NCBI GenBank assembly: GCA_964547485.1
Contig: CAZJNU010000003.1
Coordinates: forward strand, 18,752-82,751
DNA from: an uncultured Actinomycetes bacterium
GTDB lineage: Bacteria > Actinomycetota > Actinomycetes > S36-B12 > UBA10799
Reading direction: 5' to 3'
Length of the DNA stretch: 64,000 nt
Made by a program: the position numbers and the translations under genes. This document shows, one piece after another, positions 10,998 to 22,092 of this stretch (position 1 is the first letter of the stretch; each line of letters starts with the position of its first letter). Under the pieces are notes generated by a model. The model had not been told where the DNA came from. It saw only the letters and a program-made list of their open reading frames with translations, and did no database searches.

Positions 10998-11525
10998 GTG
11001 TGCCCATGACGCTCATCGGAACTCACACCTTGCGTCAGGCCAACGGGTCATAACACTACGGTGCCGTAGCGTTATCGTCAATCATGCGACGAGGCCTCGC
11101 TGTACGACATCTGGACCAGGTAGCCGCAGCGCTGAGGGACATTTTGGCTGCTGGCCTGTGCAGGGATCCGCTCAGCAGGTGGAGTTCATTCGCTGGGAGG
11201 GGTGCCAGTACATGTCCTTGTAGCCCGTGGCAATGTGAAGAGCCCACTGGTCCGCGGCGCTTTGGCACTGGAGACTTGTTCCGGAATCGAACCATGCCCC
11301 AGGGAAGGCAGTGTCGGTGCCGGCCATGATGATGTCAGGGTTCGCCTCCGACCGCGACCCGCGACGGCCGCTTTCACCGAAGTGCATACCTCCAACAGCT
11401 GTCCCGCCTGCGTCGCCAGTTGCAGCGGCGACCCCGTCGTCTCGACCGGGACGGGCGCAATCGGCACCAAGAGCCCGGCGCGGTTAGGTTTGGGAGTTGA
11501 GCATGTCTGCAACTTGGAGGCGACT

Positions 11526-13142
11526 ATGCGCCAGCTCGCAAGTTCGCGAATCCCACCACTCTTCGCGGCAACGATGGTGATGCTGGCCGTGACCAGCTGT
11601 GGCGATTCCACTGGTCCAACGGTGTCGTCCTCGGCTTCGCCAGCGACACCGGCCGCCGCTGCCGACCCGCTGTCGTGGTCAGCGGTGGACATTCCAAGTT
11701 CCCGCATCGACGCAGCGATCGACAGTCTCGACGGCATTGCCGAGAAGACCATGAAGGAGACGGGCATCCCCGGCATGTCGATCGCCGTTGTCCGTAACGG
11801 CGAGGTCGTCTACGCCAAGGGCCTCGGAGTTCGCAAGGTGGGCACCACGGATGGCGTCAACGCCGACACCATCTTTCAGGTGGCCTCCGTATCGAAGCCC
11901 ATCGGCGCCAGCGTGGTCGCCTCAGTCGTCGGCACCGGCAAAGTGGCCTGGACCGATCCGGTCAGCAAGTACCTTCCTGACTTCGCACTGTCGGACCCGT
12001 ACGTGACCAAGAACGCCACAATCGGAGACCTGTACGCGATGCGATCCGGGCTGCCTGCTGAGGCTGGCGACACCCTGGAGTGGATGGGCTACAACCGGGA
12101 ACAGGTACTGCAACGACTGCGATACCTGCCGCTGACGCCTTTCCGAGCCGAGTACCACTACACGAACTTCGGCCTCACCGCAGGCGCCCAGGCAGTCGCC
12201 AACGCAGTCGGCACCCCATGGGAAGCGCTATCCAAGCAGCGGCTGTACGAACCACTCGGGATGACGCGCACCAGCTCGAATTACGCGGAGTTCCTGACGT
12301 CCGACAATCGGGCGACCTTGCACAGCAAAGTAAACGGGGAGTACGGGGCCCACGAGATCCGCGACCCGCAGGCACAATCCCCCGCGGGCGGCGTGAGTAC
12401 CAGCGCCAATGACATGGCCAAGTGGATGATCATGGAGCTCGGTCAGGGCAAGTACCAGGGCAAGCAGGTGGTGTCCGCGGAGGCGCTACAGGAGTCGCTG
12501 GTACCGCGGATGACCACTCGGGCGGCGACTGAGCCGACGCAGCGATCCGGCCAGATCGGCTACGGAATCCTCGTCGACACGGACAGCACCGGTCGGATCC
12601 GATACTCCTTCAGCGGCGCCTTCGATGTCGGTGCCGCCACAACCTTCACGCTGTTGCCATCGGAGAACCTCGGGATCTCGGTGTTCACCAACGCGGCCCC
12701 GATCGGCGCCGCCGAGGCAGTCAGCTATGAATTCCTGGACCGGGCGGAAATCGGGAGCAGCAGCCAGGATTGGCTGGCGGTGATGGGGAAGGTGTACGAA
12801 TCCATGGACAGCATGCCGACGCCACCGCCTCCACCTGCTGCACCGGCTCCACCCGCGCCGCTCACCGACTACACCGGCGTCTACACCAACACCTTCTACG
12901 GTCCGGCGACGGTCACGGTTGAAGGAGCGGGTTTGGTTGCGAAGTTCGGGCCGGCTGCTCGCAGCTTCCCGTTGCGCCCCTACGACGGCAACACGTTCTC
13001 CGCACAAGTCCCCTATTCGGACGTCTGGCTACCTTCAGTCACCTTCACCGCGCCCGCGGGGGGTCCGGCCACCAGCGTGAAGTTCGATCAGTTCGGCGAC
13101 GCGGGTCAGGGCACCTTCACCCGCGCGGCACCGTCTCCGTGA
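11526..13142 (+). CDS. Serine hydrolase lipoprotein (class C beta-lactamase/PBP-like, with C-terminal DUF3471-like domain)
   Basis: Lipobox LAVTSC, SxxK (SVSK), YxN (YTN). ATG 11526 follows GGAGG, so the track start 11202 is too early. Confidence 0.88.
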   Translation: MRQLASSRIPPLFAATMVMLAVTSCGDSTGPTVSSSASPATPAAAADPLSWSAVDIPSSRIDAAIDSLDGIAEKTMKETGIPGMSIAVVRNGEVVYAKGLGVRKVGTTDGVNADTIFQVASVSKPIGASVVASVVGTGKVAWTDPVSKYLPDFALSDPYVTKNATIGDLYAMRSGLPAEAGDTLEWMGYNREQVLQRLRYLPLTPFRAEYHYTNFGLTAGAQAVANAVGTPWEALSKQRLYEPLGMTRTSSNYAEFLTSDNRATLHSKVNGEYGAHEIRDPQAQSPAGGVSTSANDMAKWMIMELGQGKYQGKQVVSAEALQESLVPRMTTRAATEPTQRSGQIGYGILVDTDSTGRIRYSFSGAFDVGAATTFTLLPSENLGISVFTNAAPIGAAEAVSYEFLDRAEIGSSSQDWLAVMGKVYESMDSMPTPPPPPAAPAPPAPLTDYTGVYTNTFYGPATVTVEGAGLVAKFGPAARSFPLRPYDGNTFSAQVPYSDVWLPSVTFTAPAGGPATSVKFDQFGDAGQGTFTRAAPSP

Positions 13143-13302: not shown

Positions 13303-14163
13303 ATGGACACGATCGTCGAGTGGGCGCAGGTGGCCGTCTCCTGGCTGCTGGTGCAGTTCGTCGACTTCTACGCGGCCATCTTCGGCCTGGCCAGTGGTCA
13401 TACCTGGACGCTCGCCTTCGTCTCAATGGCCCTGCTGGTGACCGTGCTGCTGGCCTATCCGACGCGACGCCAACTCGAGATGCAGAGGCTCACCTGGGAG
13501 ATCACCCCGGTCACGATGAAAGTCGCGAAGGCGTACAAACACGACAAGGCCAAGGGGAACGCGGAACGCCGCCGGATCCAGCGGCACTTCGGCTTCAGCA
13601 TTTGGTGGCAACTGGTGCCGACGTTCCTATCTCTTGCGGTGTTCCTCGCTCTCAACTCGGTGGTTGAGGGCCTGGCGACTGACTCTGCCGAGGGTGTCTT
13701 CACCTGGACGCAGTATGAGGGTTATGTGGACGCCGCACAGAAGGCCACCTTCCTGGGGGTGCCGTACCCAACCGGGCTGCAGACGATCGGGCAAAGCCCG
13801 ACGCCGTGGCTGTCCGTCGTGGTGATCTTGGCGCTGTTGGCGCTGATGATCCCTGTGAACGCGACCCTGCAACGGCAGATCAATGGACCGCTCGCCACGA
13901 ACAAGTGGATGCGCCGGCAGCAACGAATCTCGCTGTACGCGCAGCCATTCGTTCTGCTGATGCTGGTCGTCGCTTTCAACGTGGCTGTGGGAGTGATGGT
14001 GTTCCAACTCGCCGGTGACCTGTTCTCCCTGGGTATCCAGACGTGGCTCCTGCGTCGTCGCCCGATACCCCCGATCGATACCGAATGGCTGAATCGCGTG
14101 GTTGCCGAGCTACCTGATGCCAGCTCAGGTGTTGGTGGCGATCGCACTGGAGGAGGTCAATAG
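13303..14163 (+). CDS. Divergent YidC/Oxa1 family membrane insertase paralog
   Basis: W..A...L..LL..P..RQ...QR....I.P....V.K.YK.DK.K...E amphipathic hairpin, ATFLGVP, and five TM segments ending GVMVF...LFSLGIQ. Confidence 0.75.
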   Translation: MDTIVEWAQVAVSWLLVQFVDFYAAIFGLASGHTWTLAFVSMALLVTVLLAYPTRRQLEMQRLTWEITPVTMKVAKAYKHDKAKGNAERRRIQRHFGFSIWWQLVPTFLSLAVFLALNSVVEGLATDSAEGVFTWTQYEGYVDAAQKATFLGVPYPTGLQTIGQSPTPWLSVVVILALLALMIPVNATLQRQINGPLATNKWMRRQQRISLYAQPFVLLMLVVAFNVAVGVMVFQLAGDLFSLGIQTWLLRRRPIPPIDTEWLNRVVAELPDASSGVGGDRTGGGQ

Positions 14164-14862: not shown

Positions 14863-15009
14863 CTACTCATACGTGATTGCGCGCAGCACATCGAGTCGGG
14901 CGGGCTGGCGCGCCGGCAATGCGGCGGCCACCACTCCCGCAATCGCTGCGACAAGGATCCAACCGGCCATCTGGCCGATGGGTAGCGAGAAGGTGGCGAA
15001 GCGTCCTAC
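14863..15009 (-). pseudogene. C-terminal remnant of an FtsX-type ABC permease
   Basis: Manual translation FATFSLPIGQMAGWILVAAIAGVVAAALPARQPARLDVLRAITYE*, the typical FtsX permease end. An in-frame stop lies just upstream. Confidence 0.6.
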
Positions 15010-15476
15010 TCAGAGGCTAGGACGGACGAGTCGGACTCTGTCGAATTCGGACCGGTTCGGACCTGGATCCGCGCCGGACGATGGGCTGCGACCAGGGCAG
15101 ACAACTTGATCCGCAGGATGCCTTCCTGACAGTCGGCCTCGACAGCATCGGCGTCGATTCGCGTCCCGAGTTTGAATTCTCGTCGGAAGGTGCCCGAGCG
15201 CATCTCGTTGACTACGACCTTCTTCTCCTCACCGACATCGGTCATATCGCGCCGACCCGACACGACCAGCGTGTCGTCGAGAACCTCGACCGCGATGTCC
15301 TCGGGCTTCGTACCGCGCACCTCCACGTCGACGTAGACGTCGTCGCCGTCCTGGACGAAGCGAGCCGCCGGTGTCCAGGCGACAGCGAGTTGGTTTCCGA
15401 AGGCGTCACGGATCATGGCGTCGAATTGTGAGTCGAGCCGGTTGCGACGGACGGCGAACTGGGGGTGCATTGCCAT
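15006..15476 (-). CDS. Hsp20/alpha-crystallin small heat-shock protein
   Basis: VDVEVRGTKPEDIAVEVLDDTLVVSG...E.RSGTFRREFKL...IDADAVEADCQEGILRI. The likely start is ATG 15476. Confidence 0.9.
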   Translation of the reverse strand: MAMHPQFAVRRNRLDSQFDAMIRDAFGNQLAVAWTPAARFVQDGDDVYVDVEVRGTKPEDIAVEVLDDTLVVSGRRDMTDVGEEKKVVVNEMRSGTFRREFKLGTRIDADAVEADCQEGILRIKLSALVAAHRPARIQVRTGPNSTESDSSVLASE

Positions 15477-15497
15477 GTTTGGATCTCCTCTCAATGG

Positions 15498-15524
15498 TTG
15501 GCACTCTGTGCCTGAGAGTGCTAA
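15498..15524 (-). promoter_or_regulatory. CIRCE element (HrcA operator)
   Basis: Minus strand TTAGCACTC-N9-GAGTGCCAA, one mismatch from the TTAGCACTC-N9-GAGTGCTAA consensus, 21 nt upstream of the hsp20 ATG. Confidence 0.9.
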
Positions 15525-15805
15525 CACAGGCGCATTTCGTCGGCATTTCTGCCTCTGATGCGGGCACGACCCTTGTTCGCTGACAGCGAACATGTTCCCG
15601 CTAATGGGGGATACCGCGCAACGAAATTTTGTGATTCAAGGACGCTGGGCAGACAATAGTCACGATGTTGGGTCCCGGCGAGAAGAATCTTGCGGATCCT
15701 TGTGAGCGTGGGGATCGCCGCCACGAGCGTGGGGACGCAGAGTGGCGACGCGGACAAAGGCCAGAACAGGTGCTGCACGAGACAGCGGCCAATGCGAAAC
15801 GGGAG

Positions 15806-17995
15806 ATGACAACGGGTATGACCCACAGCAGTAGGAAGTTCAACAACGCAGGGAAAGCCTCTCTAGGGGTGCTGACAGCGATCGCGTTGGCCGGCACGGG
15901 ACTGCTCAGTCTCAGCCCCGCAGCTGCGGCCGACGACATCGTCTTGACGTGGCGCGTCACAGACTCCTGGACCGGCGGCGCGACCGTTGACGCCACACTC
16001 AGCAACCGTTCGGCTGCTGCCGTGTCCACCTGGAGCGTCGCCATCAGCGGAGGTCCGCAGTTCGTCTCCGCCTGGAATGCGACACGTTCCTCAGCCACCA
16101 CCGTCACCGCGCCAGGCTGGGCCAGCAACCTGCCCGCAGGGTCGTCGGTGGCGTTCGGCGCATCGATGAACTCCAATGCTGCGCCCACCGGCTGCAGCGT
16201 TCCGGGGCACGTGTGCCGGGTCGTCAGCACTGCCCCCACGCCCACGCCCACGCCGACCACCACTCCGGCTCCGACGCCCACGCAGACCCCCACCCCCACG
16301 CCCATGCCAACTCAGCCTCAGCCCGGCCCCGGGAACCTGCCGACACCGGTTCATTTCACTCCCACAAGCACCGCGAGCGGCACGTTGACCTATCACACCG
16401 CGTTGCCCTATCCGACCGGCACGAACGACAAGTTGGTGCTGTCGTCGAACTACACCGACCTGATCATCAGCAACTACGTCTCGGGCGCACTGCTGGCCAA
16501 GCTCTTGCGCGACAAGGAGCCCGGCCTGGCGCTCAACCGTGACTACATCTACGGCACCATGTTCGCCCAACTCCTGCAGGAGAACATCAACACGGGCGGC
16601 TACAACGCCACGACCGACTGGATCAACCCGACCGCAACCGAACGGACCCAGCTGCTGGCCTCAGGGCAGGGCGGCCCCTATCAGATCAACGACTACTCGA
16701 AGCGGTTGGAGACGCCAGCGGGGATCGGACTGATCAACTACGTCGCCCTCCAGAAGGGACTGGGCTACACCGTCGAGGATCAGGACAGCGGAAAGCAGAC
16801 GGCCAGCGTCGGTCCGTCCTCGCTGGACGAGAAGTACTTCGGTCCGATGGCCGCGGCCTACTTCCACCTCAACGACACCAACCGGCTGGCGATGAACAAT
16901 GCCGATTCCTGGGGTCCGCAATACGCCACGTATGGGCAGTGCATGACCAACCTGAAGAATGCCAAGTCCGAGCAGGCACCGTTCAACAACTACGACATGA
17001 TCCTCAACGCCGCCTACAACGCCGGCACCTACTCAAGGATCCTGGGCGACTACTTCAGGATCTGCGCCGGCCAATTCGGTACCGGCGCGGCGGCCACTCA
17101 GGTGAAGTCCCTGGCCGACTACTCGCTGAGCGACAAGGACTACCAGGCGGCCATCGGAACGGCGGAATCGGTGGGCTCGACCTTCATCCTCTACCCCCGA
17201 CAGGTGCGGCTGTACCTGGACCAGATGTACAACCAGAGTTCCTTCCCCTCCCCCGCCATCACGGGCGACACGAAGATCGATCTCTCGGTGACCGACATCC
17301 GCTACGTGTTTGCCAACGCCATGGGAACGCTCGCCTATCAAGGACCCAACAGCAGTTACTCCTACGTGGCGCTGGCCGATAGCAATGCAGCATTCCAGTC
17401 GGCGCTCACCGCAACCGGACTGACGTCCAGCTCCCGGCTGAACATCTCGACTGCCGCTGGACGGACCGCGTTCTTCAACCTGCTGGATGCAGCCATCGCC
17501 AATCTGTCGAGCCGGGTGGGTAGCAACTTCGGCGGCGTCACGCAGACAACGATCAACGGACCCACTCCGACTCCAACCCCGACGCCGACACCCACCCCGA
17601 CGCCCACGCCCACGCCCACCCCCACGCCGACGCCCACCCCGACGCCCACCCCGACGCCGACCTCGAACGGCGCAATCGGCGTGAGGCTGACCAACGTGTC
17701 CGATTGGGGCACTGGCCGGACCATGGACGTTGCCGTGACCAACACCGGTGGGACTGCGTCGACCTCATGGACGGTGTCCTTCGCTTGGCCGCGAGACATC
17801 TCACCGTGGAATGCCACCCGGCTGTCCTATGCCGGTGGACGAGTCACCCTGGGCAACGCTGCATGGAACGGAACATTGGCGCGCGGAGCGTCCACCACGT
17901 TCGGGTTCTCCGACTCGTCACCCAGTCAGCCGAAGCCGACCAGTTGCACCGCGACCATGAACGGCACCCCGGTGGCCTGCACCCTCACGCCGTAG
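15806..17995 (+). CDS. Secreted CBM2-(PT)n-lysozyme-like catalytic domain-(PT)n-CBM2 protein, putative chitinase/glycosidase
   Basis: Signal peptide and two CBM2 domains (DSWTGG..SAWNA..WASNL..FG..C; SDWGTG..PWNA..WNGTL..FGF..C). The central domain has QLLQEN, GPYQIN and AAYNAG. Start at 15806 or 15818. Confidence 0.75.
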   Translation: MTTGMTHSSRKFNNAGKASLGVLTAIALAGTGLLSLSPAAAADDIVLTWRVTDSWTGGATVDATLSNRSAAAVSTWSVAISGGPQFVSAWNATRSSATTVTAPGWASNLPAGSSVAFGASMNSNAAPTGCSVPGHVCRVVSTAPTPTPTPTTTPAPTPTQTPTPTPMPTQPQPGPGNLPTPVHFTPTSTASGTLTYHTALPYPTGTNDKLVLSSNYTDLIISNYVSGALLAKLLRDKEPGLALNRDYIYGTMFAQLLQENINTGGYNATTDWINPTATERTQLLASGQGGPYQINDYSKRLETPAGIGLINYVALQKGLGYTVEDQDSGKQTASVGPSSLDEKYFGPMAAAYFHLNDTNRLAMNNADSWGPQYATYGQCMTNLKNAKSEQAPFNNYDMILNAAYNAGTYSRILGDYFRICAGQFGTGAAATQVKSLADYSLSDKDYQAAIGTAESVGSTFILYPRQVRLYLDQMYNQSSFPSPAITGDTKIDLSVTDIRYVFANAMGTLAYQGPNSSYSYVALADSNAAFQSALTATGLTSSSRLNISTAAGRTAFFNLLDAAIANLSSRVGSNFGGVTQTTINGPTPTPTPTPTPTPTPTPTPTPTPTPTPTPTPTPTSNGAIGVRLTNVSDWGTGRTMDVAVTNTGGTASTSWTVSFAWPRDISPWNATRLSYAGGRVTLGNAAWNGTLARGASTTFGFSDSSPSQPKPTSCTATMNGTPVACTLTP
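16234..16315 (+). repeat. Pro-Thr linker repeat
   Basis: Encodes APTPTPTPTTTPAPTPTQTPTPTPMP. Confidence 0.85.
17561..17661 (+). repeat. Pro-Thr linker repeat, about 16 PT units
   Basis: Synonymously varied CCN-ACN hexamers. Confidence 0.9.
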
Positions 17996-18139: not shown

Positions 18140-18862
18140 ATGGAGTGCATGGCACAGCCTGAATCGCAAGCCGAACCGACCGAGAAGATCAAAGTCAAAG
18201 GCGTTTCGCCACTGATGATCTTCTACGGCTTCATTCCGTACATCATCATGTCGCTGTTCTCAGGACCGAACACTTTCCTGCTCGTCACCTCGATCTCCGT
18301 TCTGATGTCGGCGGCCTGGATGGTCTTCGGCCTGTTGCAGCACCGTGGCTTGCACCAACTCTCCACGGTGGGCACCATCGTGTTCGGGTCGATGCTGCTG
18401 CTGGCGTTCGTCAACCCTGCCTGGGACGCCTGGATTCGAAACTGGTCAGGCACCATCGCCGAGATCTCGCTGGTGTTGACGGCATTCATCGGCATCCTGG
18501 TGAAGAAGCCGTTCACCCTGTACTACGCCAAGCTCAGCGTCGACCAAGTCCAGTGGGAGAACAACCCCCTGTTCCGAGCCGGCGTCGTCAAGGTGAGCCA
18601 GACGATCACGGCGGTCTGGGGATTGTCCTTCCTCGTCGGAGTGGCCTGCGACTTCGCCCCCGGTGACCTCAAGAACAACATCATCTTCACCTGGATCATC
18701 CCGCTGCTTGCCATGTTCGGAGCCATCAGATTCACCACGTGGTACCCCGAATACCGTCGACAGAAGGCCTACGCCGAGCACCCGGAAATCGTCGAGCAAC
18801 ACCGCGCCATCGCCGAGCAGGCTCAGGCTGCGGCGACCGAGGAGCCCGACACCTCGAAGTAG
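18140..18862 (+). CDS. Membrane protein of unknown function
   Basis: 240 aa with about six hydrophobic segments and KKPFTLYYAK. Strong C/G third-position bias. Confidence 0.75.
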   Translation: MECMAQPESQAEPTEKIKVKGVSPLMIFYGFIPYIIMSLFSGPNTFLLVTSISVLMSAAWMVFGLLQHRGLHQLSTVGTIVFGSMLLLAFVNPAWDAWIRNWSGTIAEISLVLTAFIGILVKKPFTLYYAKLSVDQVQWENNPLFRAGVVKVSQTITAVWGLSFLVGVACDFAPGDLKNNIIFTWIIPLLAMFGAIRFTTWYPEYRRQKAYAEHPEIVEQHRAIAEQAQAAATEEPDTSK

Positions 18863-19042
18863 TGCCGAGGATCGCGCCGGGTCCGCGATGGTTCGGTGTC
18901 ACTGGGGCAGGTCGACGTGCTGCTTGACAGGCGAACCCCGAACTTCTGCTGCTACCGTCTGCGCCTACACCGTCGGAATGACCTTCCGGTCGTTCTGCGT
19001 GCTAGATGCTAGATCGGCCCAATCGGAGGCAACCGAATGCCA

Positions 19043-19864
19043 ATGTCGTCTTTGCCCGAGGACATCAGCCAGTTACGCCCAGCGATGCACCAGCTCAGGG
19101 ATTGGGTCTACGGCGACGAAGTCGATCACCGTCTCTTCGCGGCCTACATGAAGACCGCCCATGACGTTGGCGGCGAACCGGATGCGCCGGTGAAGTACGT
19201 GGAGAAGGAAGAGGAGATCTGGGAACTCAACACGTTCATCACGTGTGAGGTTCTCGGGTGGCGAGGCATCTGGACCTCGGAGGAGCGCAGAAGACTCGGC
19301 AACGTCGATCTCGGGAAGACGCAGTACAGCGGACTGCCGTACTACGGTCGCTGGGTGCTCGCCATGTGCCGACTCCTCGTCGAGAAGCACCACATCACGC
19401 TGCGCGAGTTGACGGACCGGGCCGACGAGGTTCACCAACGGATCGAAGGTGACGACGCCGTCGGCAACCTGCAGGCCGAGCCCTCAGGCACTGGCGATGG
19501 CGCCGGCGTGAGGCGGAATGAGCACCACACCGACGCGATCGGCAAAGGCGACCCGCAGTGCTTCGCCGGGATGGCGGGCGACCCGCGCTTCTCGGTTGGC
19601 GAGTCGGTGCGGGTACGGACGATGCCCGCCCTCTTCTACACGCGGACCCCGGAGTACATGCGAGGTGTCACCGGGACGGTGGTCAGTTTGACGTACGAGA
19701 GCCTCGCCGCCGAGGACGAGGCCTTCGATCGCGAGGATCAACCCCCCGAGTGGTTCTACATCGTTCGCTTCAAGATGGACGACCTCTGGGATGGCTATGC
19801 GGGACCTGCCATCGACACCCTGCAGGCGGAGTTGGAGGAGCACTGGCTTGAGCCGGTGACGTGA
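19043..19864 (+). CDS. scnB: Thiocyanate hydrolase beta-alpha fusion (NHase-beta-like)
   Basis: The N half matches ScnB (HDVGGEPD.P..Y.EKEEEIWELNTF.TCE.L.WRG.WT.EERRR...YYGRW). The C half matches ScnA (GDPQCF.GMAG..F.VG..V...FYTRT..Y.RG.TG...YES.AAEDEAF). Confidence 0.9.
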   Translation: MSSLPEDISQLRPAMHQLRDWVYGDEVDHRLFAAYMKTAHDVGGEPDAPVKYVEKEEEIWELNTFITCEVLGWRGIWTSEERRRLGNVDLGKTQYSGLPYYGRWVLAMCRLLVEKHHITLRELTDRADEVHQRIEGDDAVGNLQAEPSGTGDGAGVRRNEHHTDAIGKGDPQCFAGMAGDPRFSVGESVRVRTMPALFYTRTPEYMRGVTGTVVSLTYESLAAEDEAFDREDQPPEWFYIVRFKMDDLWDGYAGPAIDTLQAELEEHWLEPVT

Positions 19865-19935
19865 AGACCACCTGAGCAGACCACCTTCGTTCCTAATCCC
19901 GAAGCCCTTTCGCAATCCCAGAGAGAGAAGCGTAG

Positions 19936-20658
19936 ATGACCGACTCGGCCGCACCCCACAACCACGAACATCGACCGCCGGCGCCCCAGGTGCACGAAAT
20001 ATCAGACTTCGAGGTGCTCGAGATCGCCTTGCGTGAGTTGGCGATCGAGAAAGGCCTCTTCACTGCAGAGGACCACCGGCGGTACACGGAGTACTTCGAA
20101 ACCCTGGGTCCTGTACCCGCGTCTCGGCTAGTCGCCAAGGCGTGGGTTGACCCGGACTTCAAGGCGCTTGCCCTCGCCGATGGACTCGCGGCAAGCCGCG
20201 AGGTCGGAGCCGACTGGCTGGACGCACCTCCCACTGGCTTCGGCACCCCGAGCGACTTCACGGCGTTCGTGATCTTGGAGGACACCCCAAAGCTGCATCA
20301 CGTAATCGTGTGCACCCTGTGTTCGTGCTACCCGCGACCCATCCTGGGGAACTCACCCGAGTGGTACCGGACGCCGAACTACCGCCGTCGCATCGTGCGC
20401 ACCCCGCGGGCGGTACTCGCCGAGTTCGGTCTGTTCCTGCCCGAGGATGTCGAGATTCGGGTCGAGGATTCGAACTCGAAGAACAGGTTCATGGTGCTGC
20501 CGGTGCGCCCAGCTGGCACCGAGGGATGGAGCGAAGATCAACTCGCCGAAATCGTGACCCGTGACTGCTGCATCGGCATCGCACTGCCAAAGCCGGGCGT
20601 GACGAATGACGCTCCTCGAGACGTTCAACCCGCCGTCAATCCCATTTCAGCCCACTGA
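19936..20658 (+). CDS. scnC: Thiocyanate hydrolase gamma subunit (Co-binding)
   Basis: EISDFEVLEIALRELAIEKGLF, PPTGFGTPSD, and VCTLCSCYPRPILG.SPEWYR.PNYRRR, the Co-type cysteine cluster followed by YPR. Confidence 0.93.
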   Translation: MTDSAAPHNHEHRPPAPQVHEISDFEVLEIALRELAIEKGLFTAEDHRRYTEYFETLGPVPASRLVAKAWVDPDFKALALADGLAASREVGADWLDAPPTGFGTPSDFTAFVILEDTPKLHHVIVCTLCSCYPRPILGNSPEWYRTPNYRRRIVRTPRAVLAEFGLFLPEDVEIRVEDSNSKNRFMVLPVRPAGTEGWSEDQLAEIVTRDCCIGIALPKPGVTNDAPRDVQPAVNPISAH

Positions 20659-20678
20659 AGTTCTCTGAGGGAGACAGG

Positions 20679-21044
20679 ATGTCGACGGACCACAACCCGG
20701 CAAACGCGAAAGTGCCGACACTCGAGCGGATCGTTGAACACGGCCAGGTGTGGCCGGATCTGATGGAGCAGTACGGCGTCGTGAACCCCACCCCGCCCTG
20801 GAAGTCGAGCCTCGACGGCATGTGTGATGCGCTCGACAAGGAGGCAACCGCGCTCCCGCTACTGGAGCGACGCGACGAGGAAGACCTGCTGTCCCAGGGA
20901 GTCTACGAGTCGTTGCCGTACCCGGAGAGCCAACTTGTCTCGCTGGCCCACTCCATGGTGTCCAGGGATCTCATTGCCGAGGACGAGTTGACTCGGCGAA
21001 TGGAGGAGGTCCGTGCGCGGCTTGAGGTCATGGACACCTGCTGA
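20679..21044 (+). CDS. SCNase activator/accessory protein (P15K / NHase-beta N-terminal-like)
   Basis: Immediately follows scnC. VYESLPYPESQLVSLAHSMV..DLI.EDEL..RM..VRARL resembles NHase-type activators. Confidence 0.75.
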   Translation: MSTDHNPANAKVPTLERIVEHGQVWPDLMEQYGVVNPTPPWKSSLDGMCDALDKEATALPLLERRDEEDLLSQGVYESLPYPESQLVSLAHSMVSRDLIAEDELTRRMEEVRARLEVMDTC

Positions 21045-22092
21045 GGAAAGCGGTTCGCAGGCGCCGACCGCCCGACCCGAGCGCAGCCCCCGGTTCCGAC
21101 TCGTAGCCGTCGGCTCGACCGTTGTGCTGCTGAACCTGCTCGCTTGGGGCCTGTATGCGGTGGGGTTGGCAGGCTCAAGCTCATCGGCCGGGATGGCCGG
21201 AGTCGGCATCCTGGCATTCGTCCTCGGCGTTCGACATGCCTTTGATGCAGACCACATTGCCACCATCGATGACTGTTCCCGACTGCTGGTGCGACGCGGA
21301 GAGCGGCCCCTCGGGCTGGGCCTCTTCTTCGCCCTTGGCCATTCCGGCGTCGTGCTATTCCTCGCCATAGTGGTGATCCTGTTCGCCGGCGCCGCCACTT
21401 CCGAAACCATGAGCATCGTGGAGTCCTTCGGCGGGAACCTGTCGGCAGCGGTGGCAGCGACGTTTCTGCTGGTTGTCGGAATTCTCAACCTCAAGGTCTT
21501 TCGATCCCTCTGGCTGGTCCGGACGCAGGCGCGCGCCGGTGCAATACCGACTGCGGAAATGGACGCCATGCTCACAAGGCGGGGGGTGCTCAGTCGGGTC
21601 TTGGGTCCGAGGATGTCCTCGGCGCTGGTCTCCTCTCCTCAGATGATTCCCATCGGGTTCCTGTTTGGGCTCGGCTTGGGAACGGCTTCGGAAGTGGCGC
21701 TGCTGGGGTTGTCGGCGACCTCCGCTGCCCAGGGCTCGGTCTCGCTGGCGGGGCTGATTGCCCTCCCGCTCCTGTTCGCAGCTGGGATGGCTCTCTTCGA
21801 TACAGCTAACTCGCTGATGATGGTGCACATGTACGGTTCGGCGACCCAGGATCGCCGCAGGGTGCGGTTCAACCTGGCGACCACCCTCACCACCGGACTG
21901 ATCGGAATCGCGGTCGGGCTCGTCTACCTGGCGGGTCTTCTGGTGGACCATGCTGGTGCGCAACTGCTGGCGCCCGTCGCCGCCATCGGGGATCACTTCG
22001 AACTGCTGGGATACGCCATCGTCACTGCCTACCTCGTGGTGTGGGTCACCACCGTCTTCGCCGGCAGAGCCTCGGGCCGAGCAAGTCCCTGA
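21013..22092 (+). CDS. NiCoT (HoxN/HupN/NixA) Ni/Co permease
   Basis: Signatures RHAFDADHIATID and GLFFALGHS, about eight TM segments. Start is uncertain. Confidence 0.92.
   Translation: MRGLRSWTPAEESGSQAPTARPERSPRFRLVAVGSTVVLLNLLAWGLYAVGLAGSSSSAGMAGVGILAFVLGVRHAFDADHIATIDDCSRLLVRRGERPLGLGLFFALGHSGVVLFLAIVVILFAGAATSETMSIVESFGGNLSAAVAATFLLVVGILNLKVFRSLWLVRTQARAGAIPTAEMDAMLTRRGVLSRVLGPRMSSALVSSPQMIPIGFLFGLGLGTASEVALLGLSATSAAQGSVSLAGLIALPLLFAAGMALFDTANSLMMVHMYGSATQDRRRVRFNLATTLTTGLIGIAVGLVYLAGLLVDHAGAQLLAPVAAIGDHFELLGYAIVTAYLVVWVTTVFAGRASGRASP

Follow-up and report, generated by a model that had tools for sequence, protein, structure and literature searches.

A CBM2-flanked secreted protein of an uncultured actinobacterium carries a core domain of an unnamed family and is a candidate chitin-cleaving enzyme

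Modular chitinases and cellulases of actinobacteria, such as Streptomyces chitinase C (ChiC) and Cellulomonas Cex, combine a Sec signal, a family 2 carbohydrate-binding module (CBM2) and Pro/Thr linkers with one central domain of catalytic size. CBM-tethered chitinases also occur among the enzymes of glycoside hydrolase (GH) family 23, to which the chitinase of Ralstonia sp. A-471 belongs. In addition, CBM5/12 proteins of unknown function, e.g., IGB42_00302 of Andreprevotia ripae, are induced on chitin in secretomes, and their homologues are found mainly in chitinolytic bacteria (PMC8802321). The present analysis concerns a gene located at positions 15806-17995 (+ strand) of a 64,000-nucleotide stretch of contig CAZJNU010000003.1 from an uncultured Actinomycetes bacterium; the whole of this stretch is termed the window, and positions are given within it. 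The complete gene encodes 729 residues plus a stop codon (P0001), translated from the ATG at 15806. Its product carries a CBM2 module at each end and, between them, a core domain which, as judged from sequence comparisons, represents a small, sharply delimited family that lacks a name, a solved structure or a characterized member. We consider, with a probability of about one half, that this is a new family of CBM-tethered and probably chitin-cleaving enzymes, in which Glu259 would serve as the catalytic acid.

The core extends over residues 175-585 (16328-17560, + strand) and is mostly helical in prediction, with an N-terminal beta hairpin and an alpha/beta part at its C-terminal end. It showed no match in Pfam (at E values up to 10), NCBIfam or PHROGs, and searches of the PDB with the whole core, the 75-residue motif region and a family profile retrieved only the CBM73/CBM5 tails of some of its relatives. 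In total, 281 core homologues with 32-71% identity were detected in a word-indexed search, and a HMMER profile search among 1.84 billion representative proteins yielded 166 clusters at E <= 0.001. At its low-scoring end the latter search gave only fragments, so that no gradient towards another family was evident. The core described here matched the family profile with E = 1.4e-169 over profile positions 20-416 and contains all of the invariant residues. Members of the family are distributed among actinobacterial metagenome-assembled genomes (MAGs), Legionella, Aquicella, Francisella, Cysteiniphilum, Vibrio, Shewanella, a Lentisphaeria MAG and others. The gene was present in five of the nine genomes of its own genus (the four orthologues in the other genomes being 51-79% identical) but in none of 30 genomes from 21 other genera of the same order, which identifies it as an accessory gene. 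It was probably acquired horizontally.

Conservation within the family is concentrated in three motifs, which the first-pass annotation of this DNA had recognized by eye, and both their positions and their order were confirmed; they form the most conserved blocks in an alignment of 102 members. Motif 1, QLLQEN, occupies residues 255-260 (16568-16585, + strand) and includes the proposed catalytic acid, Glu259 (codon 16580-16582), which is identical in all 102. Motif 2, GGPYQIN, is located at residues 289-295 (16670-16690, + strand; GPYQIN from residue 290, 16673), and motif 3, AYNAG, at residues 403-407 (17012-17026, + strand), within ILNAAYNAG, which starts at residue 399 (17000). Altogether, 12 positions were identical in the 102 aligned cores: Gly227, Glu259, Gly289, Gly290, Pro291, Gln293 and Asn295 (the latter five making up the invariant G, G, P, Q and N of motif 2), Asn311, Pro337, and Tyr404, Asn405 and Gly407 of motif 3. 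Another group of residues was conserved at 90-99%, comprising His197, Tyr247, Gln255, Gln258, Tyr292, Tyr297 and Arg553, as well as Asp397 (91%), just upstream of AYNAG, and several residues in or next to a fourth block, YPRQVRLYLDQ, at residues 464-474 (17195-17227, + strand). In this block Gln466, Tyr470 and Asp472 are conserved at 96-98%, and Tyr463, which directly precedes it, at 96-99%; Asp472 is a candidate for a second carboxylate. Of the 17 columns that were invariant in the first alignment, 10 lie within the 27 positions covered by the three motif blocks (hypergeometric 4e-9), and the motifs therefore make up the functional center of the family, whatever their ancestry. The family also contains two near-invariant Cys residues, suggesting a disulfide, which would fit an extracellular protein.

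The modules that accompany the core in other proteins were analyzed further. CBM5/12 modules were found in 11 of 55 and in 3 of 51 members, and the other fused modules included CBM2, CBM3, CBM6, CBM35, fn3, ChitinaseA_N and CHB_HEX_C (the chitobiase C-terminal domain). A GH18 domain is fused to the core in 4 of 51 representatives, and five fusion proteins retain an intact GH18 DGxDxDxE motif. In one protein, P0122, two intact GH18 motifs (at residues 1230 and 2581) flank the core, in which GGPYQ is located at residue 1655. The core also occurs in several giant multidomain proteins, namely P0122 (2850 residues), P0123 (2680 residues) and P0163 (1885 residues). In Vibrio ostreicida, the family gene directly follows that of a 1046-residue GH18/ChiC chitinase. 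Taken across the family, these partners suggest chitin as the target. The first-pass annotation had proposed a glycosidase tethered to chitin or cellulose; a glycan-active enzyme tethered to chitin is thus supported by the pair of CBM2 modules, the CBM5/12 modules of the family, the GH18 fusions and the neighboring ChiC.

The genome of the host organism was examined for comparable proteins. Four GH18 matches were observed, two of them in CBM2-bearing frames, and the modular arrangements included CBM2-CBM2-GH18 (contig C56) and CBM2 together with a GH18-like domain (contig C186). The same two-anchor layout recurs in a 756-residue open frame on contig C33 (1541-3457, - strand), in which the modules are arranged as CBM2-GH5-CBM2. 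No AA10, GH19 or SLT (lytic transglycosylase) match was detected in scans of this genome. The organism has a modest complement of secreted enzymes that bear CBM2 tags.

In the proposed mechanism, the protein would be exported by the Sec pathway, whereupon the two CBM2 modules, on their flexible Pro/Thr linkers, would dock the 410-residue catalytic-type domain on insoluble, crystalline chitin. Glu259 would then act as the general acid and protonate the glycosidic oxygen of a beta-1,4 bond, while the sugar-binding site would be built from the invariant loop of motif 2 (GGPYQIN), the Y-N-x-G stretch of motif 3 and the many Tyr, Asn and Gln residues conserved in the family. Either Asp472 or Asp397 could activate a water molecule, resulting in inverting hydrolysis; alternatively, the N-acetyl group of the substrate might assist. 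The core would in this way add an activity that complements that of GH18 enzymes instead of duplicating it, which is probable in view of the several relatives fused to GH18 chitinases with the catalytic motif intact. That the core is catalytic, that Glu259 has this role and that chitin is the substrate are all inferred, and the target of this particular copy may be cellulose. A more specific form of the proposal, which we put forward tentatively, is that the core founds a new CAZy-type family with a previously unseen fold and cleaves chitin by a single-Glu route, possibly substrate-assisted or lytic (i.e., non-hydrolytic and 1,6-anhydro-forming). Such a route, complementing GH18, would explain the repeated fusion to active GH18 domains.

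Several observations weigh against a chitin-cleaving enzyme. Glu259 is the sole invariant carboxylate of the family, which is without a second strictly invariant one. The CBM2 anchors alone cannot separate chitin from cellulose, since CBM2 modules also flank the GH5 cellulase of this genome. An adjacent chitinase was seen in only one of the nine neighborhoods examined, most copies standing alone; the nine showed no recurrent operon and the other eight no conserved partner. A CE4 deacetylase gene lies near the Legionella copy. Finally, a literature search found no paper on the family or its motifs.

The first-pass annotation had noted neither a GH18 nor a GH19 signature in the core, and this was corroborated. 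A GH18 identity was rejected, as neither a D.D.E motif anywhere in the 729-residue protein nor a match to Pfam PF00704 was found; GH18, with its DxxDxDxE signature, is confined to some of the relatives, where it forms a fused domain of its own. GH19 was considered owing to a likeness of strings (HET.GG and GRGPIQL versus QEN..GG and GQGGPYQI), but was discarded for lack of support, an hhalign comparison giving P = 0.78 and a PF00182 scan of the organism's own genome no matches. GH19 enzymes also require two catalytic Glu residues, whereas the core has one invariant Glu.

An AlphaFold2 model of the core, based on a 55-sequence alignment, was mostly helical, with a pLDDT (predicted local distance difference test) of 95.5 and a pTM (predicted template modeling score) of 0.95. 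In this model Glu259 is found where a helix reaches its C-terminal end, as in lysozyme-type enzymes. Foldseek was used to compare the full model with the PDB and BFVD and, in case the flanks had hidden a lysozyme core, a trimmed motif-bearing model (residues 38-305; pLDDT 93.7) with the PDB. Neither model gave a match at E <= 0.001; the best ones (E 0.24-1.8, TM <= 0.2) were to unrelated helical proteins, and entries for lysozyme, SLT, GH19, GH46 or GH124 were absent from the best 50 matches in both PDB searches. The BFVD matches included two proteins with the name lytic transglycosylase or transglycosylase, but at chance level only (E 4-7). As modeled, the core fold is without a detectable counterpart among solved structures. 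The first-pass annotation had assigned the core to the lysozyme/SLT (GH23) fold and had named a predicted fold unlike that of lysozyme as the outcome that would speak against it; as far as Foldseek sees, the fold is not lysozyme-like, and the assignment was not borne out here or in the profile comparisons given below.

A different account of the core, which we regard as doubtful, is that it belongs, in a strongly altered form, to the lysozyme superfamily (GH23/SLT-, GH19- or GH22-like), with a fold that large insertions hide from search tools. Glu259 would then correspond to the catalytic Glu of Slt70 and goose lysozyme, GGPYQ to GLMQ, and AYNAG to SLT motif III. The position of Glu259 at the end of a helix is consistent with this account, and similar strings are known from hen lysozyme (FESNFNT ... 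GILQIN) and GH19 enzymes (HET.GG ... GRGPIQL). Moreover, when three 9-column SLT matrices were applied in collinear order, the best path consisted of MFAQLLQEN, GQGGPYQIN and LNAAYNAGT, exactly the three noted motifs, with a total of 21.9 bits. Yet 15.8 of these bits are due to the exact AYNAG alone. The first block, in which helix 77-85 of the model terminates at Glu259 and Asn instead of Ser comes next, contributes 5.1 bits, and the second, in which GGPYQ and G-L-M-Q have only G and Q in common, 1.0 bit. Among 3493 long six-frame open reading frames (ORFs) of this genome, 12 scored at least as high, as did 12 of 2000 shuffles (~0.3-0.6% of the null). The domains and the family are thus secure, but the likeness of the three motifs to SLT that the first-pass annotation had recognized is, in a single sequence, only marginal: unusual, yet not compelling for a motif found by eye among ~60 genes.

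Profile comparisons bear on the same account. The Pfam models of the lysozyme clan, PF01464 included, missed the core even at E <= 10, and a PF01464 scan of the organism's genome gave no matches, the present gene included. When the family was compared by hhalign with an alignment of 21 SLT domains from related genomes, the probability was 0.6% (P ~0.1), which contrasts with the 90% probability at which divergent SLT subgroups match one another. The sole local match comprised 10 columns and placed Glu259 on the SLT Glu-Ser pair, and a greedy extension lined up all three motifs with those of SLT, both in favor of a derived lysozyme. With AYNAG-class SLTs alone, however, the alignment was anchored on AYNAG (P = 0.014) and the SLT Glu-Ser pair fell on QDSG instead of Glu259, so that the alignment must be considered unstable. 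The nearest bridge at the level of strings is L021 (G010:C329:3604-3771), an SLT-like protein of a related genome, in which HDYGLFQIND resembles the GGPYQIND of the family; a profile comparison of the family with the L021 subgroup gave no support (P = 0.75). The hhalign negative is weak at the superfamily level, as a control comparison of SLT with GH19, which belong to a common superfamily, was also missed (P = 0.18); it rules out membership of the GH23 family and not a very remote superfamily link. The silent PF01464 and PF00182 scans, the P value of 0.78 for GH19 and the lack of a significant lysozyme-type Foldseek match for either model, in the PDB or BFVD, also weigh against the derived-lysozyme account.

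It is also conceivable, though unlikely, that the core is an enzyme acting on a polymer other than chitin (cellulose, beta-glucan, chitosan, peptidoglycan or a glycoprotein), in which case the CBMs would serve only to bring the core to a composite material, e.g., arthropod cuticle, the wall of a fungus or of an amoebal cyst, or a sludge floc. The GH5 cellulase of this genome, with its CBM2 modules, would be in keeping with such a role, as would relatives that carry CBM3, CBM6, CBM35 or F5/8-type C modules and one that carries a subtilase. Stand-alone copies are present in Legionella and Aquicella, which associate with amoebae, and the CE4 deacetylase gene near the Legionella copy is accompanied by polysaccharide O-acetylation genes. 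Chitin secretomes, too, hold chitin-binding proteases and other non-chitinase proteins (PMC8802321). Against this, CBM5/12 is the commonest partner in the family, ChitinaseA_N and the chitobiase C-terminal domain are also present, GH18 is the only glycoside hydrolase domain found fused to the core in these scans (one member having a subtilase peptidase), and the C-terminal CBM2 of the protein has its nearest counterpart in a Streptomyces chitinase. The prospect that the core is not catalytic at all, but an accessory protein that binds or disrupts chitin or cellulose, or else an adhesin, with the polar residues serving in binding, we consider very improbable. The missing second carboxylate, the lack of a match to any known catalytic family and the occurrence of some members in giant, adhesin-like proteins with many Ig, cadherin and fn3 domains are in its favor. 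Conversely, the 12 strictly invariant positions, maintained over 23-70% identity, the lone Glu at a helix end and the Gly-Gly-Pro loop are more reminiscent of an active site; two modules of the protein are already devoted to binding, and the fusions of the core to active GH18 domains are similar to those known from proteins that combine two enzymes.

The remaining parts of the protein conform to the modular layout that the first-pass annotation had described, with a CBM2 module and a Pro/Thr linker on either side of the core (~410 residues in the present analysis). A Sec-type signal peptide, read by eye from the sequence, comprises residues 1-42 (15806-15931, + strand), with a basic n-region (RK), a hydrophobic core and AAAA before DD. 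Both CBM2 modules were recognized by Pfam CBM_2 (PF00553; E = 1.3e-26, 93.3 bits versus a gathering cut-off of 24) in two stretches, one per end, and both were recovered in the whole-genome scan. The N-terminal module occupies residues ~45-137 (15938-16216, + strand), with one CBM_2 stretch, a CBM49 match at residues 51-118 and a genome-scan PF00553 match at G000:C3:34698-34967 (E = 2.7e-12). The C-terminal module, at residues ~622-729 (17669-17992, + strand), gave the best Pfam stretch (628-720); among solved structures it is most closely related to the CBM2 of Streptomyces chitinase C (PDB 2rtt, E = 4.2e-10), other PDB relatives of CBM2 being 1exg (Cex, E = 3.8e-9) and 6qfs. Linker 1 comprises residues 144-171 (16235-16318, + strand), and linker 2, a (PT)17 repeat at residues 586-619, is followed by SN (17561-17668, + strand). 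A strain variant from run X8 has 12 extra bases (GACGCCCACGCA) behind 16254 in linker 1, corresponding to four extra residues; the length of this linker thus differs between strains.

The gene is enclosed in a longer ORF (15665-17995, + strand), with an alternative ATG at 15665. RNA contigs of two runs (X19 and X20) start at 15709/15710, downstream of that ATG, and a same-genus orthologue can be aligned from residue 1 of the 729-residue protein; a start at 15806, or at the ATG at 15818, is therefore favored. Position 15709/15710 may represent the 5' end of the transcript, with a leader of ~97 nucleotides before the ATG at 15806. In total, RNA contigs from four metatranscriptome runs (wastewater or activated sludge) cover the gene, whereby such contigs denote presence and not expression level, and some carry-over of DNA is possible. 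The gene is real and is transcribed in situ in wastewater communities.

The neighbors of the gene in the window are functionally unrelated to it, comprising genes for Hsp20, a membrane protein of no known family and nitrile hydratase. The divergent Hsp20 gene (15006-15593, - strand) was not covered by RNA contigs. Located 145 nucleotides downstream of the enzyme gene is that of the membrane protein (18140-18862, + strand), a 240-residue, multi-pass protein with no Pfam match; in some runs RNA contigs extend into it from the enzyme gene, and co-transcription is possible. A scan for promoters and terminators found no sites. Further downstream (19037-22092, + strand) are the genes for the beta and alpha subunits of nitrile hydratase (the latter with VCTLCSC), followed by a NicO nickel/cobalt transporter. 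Upstream, a YidC/60KD_IMP-like membrane protein (13303-14163) and a beta-lactamase-fold protein with DUF3471 (11202-13142) are apparently unrelated to the enzyme gene.

The core, which is present in Vibrio, Shewanella, Francisella, Legionella and the actinobacteria of sludge, is a concrete candidate for a further family of chitin-degrading enzymes, and one that lends itself to testing. If active, it would represent a new CAZy family, probably with a new fold, and could be of use in chitin valorization. It would also provide a function for ~170 clusters of "hypothetical" proteins, some of them in genera related to pathogens. If the core should prove to be a much-altered lysozyme fold, the known limits of the lysozyme superfamily would be extended.

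In comparison with the GH23/SLT enzymes (PF01464) and goose-type lysozymes, the core has in common a helix-terminal Glu, followed by G-x-x-Q-[IV] and an exact AYNAG in the same order, together with a single dominant carboxylate. It differs in its size (~410 residues versus ~150), in the Asn that replaces Ser after the Glu, and in the lack of a profile or Foldseek match; the motifs are spaced by 30 and 110 residues, compared to ~15 and 55 in Slt70 of Escherichia coli. Its likeness to GH19 (PF00182), as represented by actinobacterial sequences, lies in two short strings, [HQ]-E-[TN]..GG, which is preceded by a hydrophobic helix, and G-[RQ]-G-(G)P-x-Q-[LI]. GH19 enzymes are likewise directed to chitin, often with CBM2 or CBM5/12, but the core has no counterpart to their second catalytic Glu, the hhalign and PF00182 results separate the two, and no GH19 structure was among the Foldseek matches listed. 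The Andreprevotia ripae IGB42_00302 type, likened here by description only, is similarly secreted and has a chitin-binding module but no recognizable catalytic domain. In its overall plan, the protein corresponds to ChiC, Cex and the CBM2-GH5-CBM2 and CBM2-CBM2-GH18 proteins of its own genome. It is thus a putative CBM-tethered secreted enzyme of a familiar kind, whose central catalytic-type domain, unlike theirs, belongs to no CAZy or Pfam family recognized by the tools.

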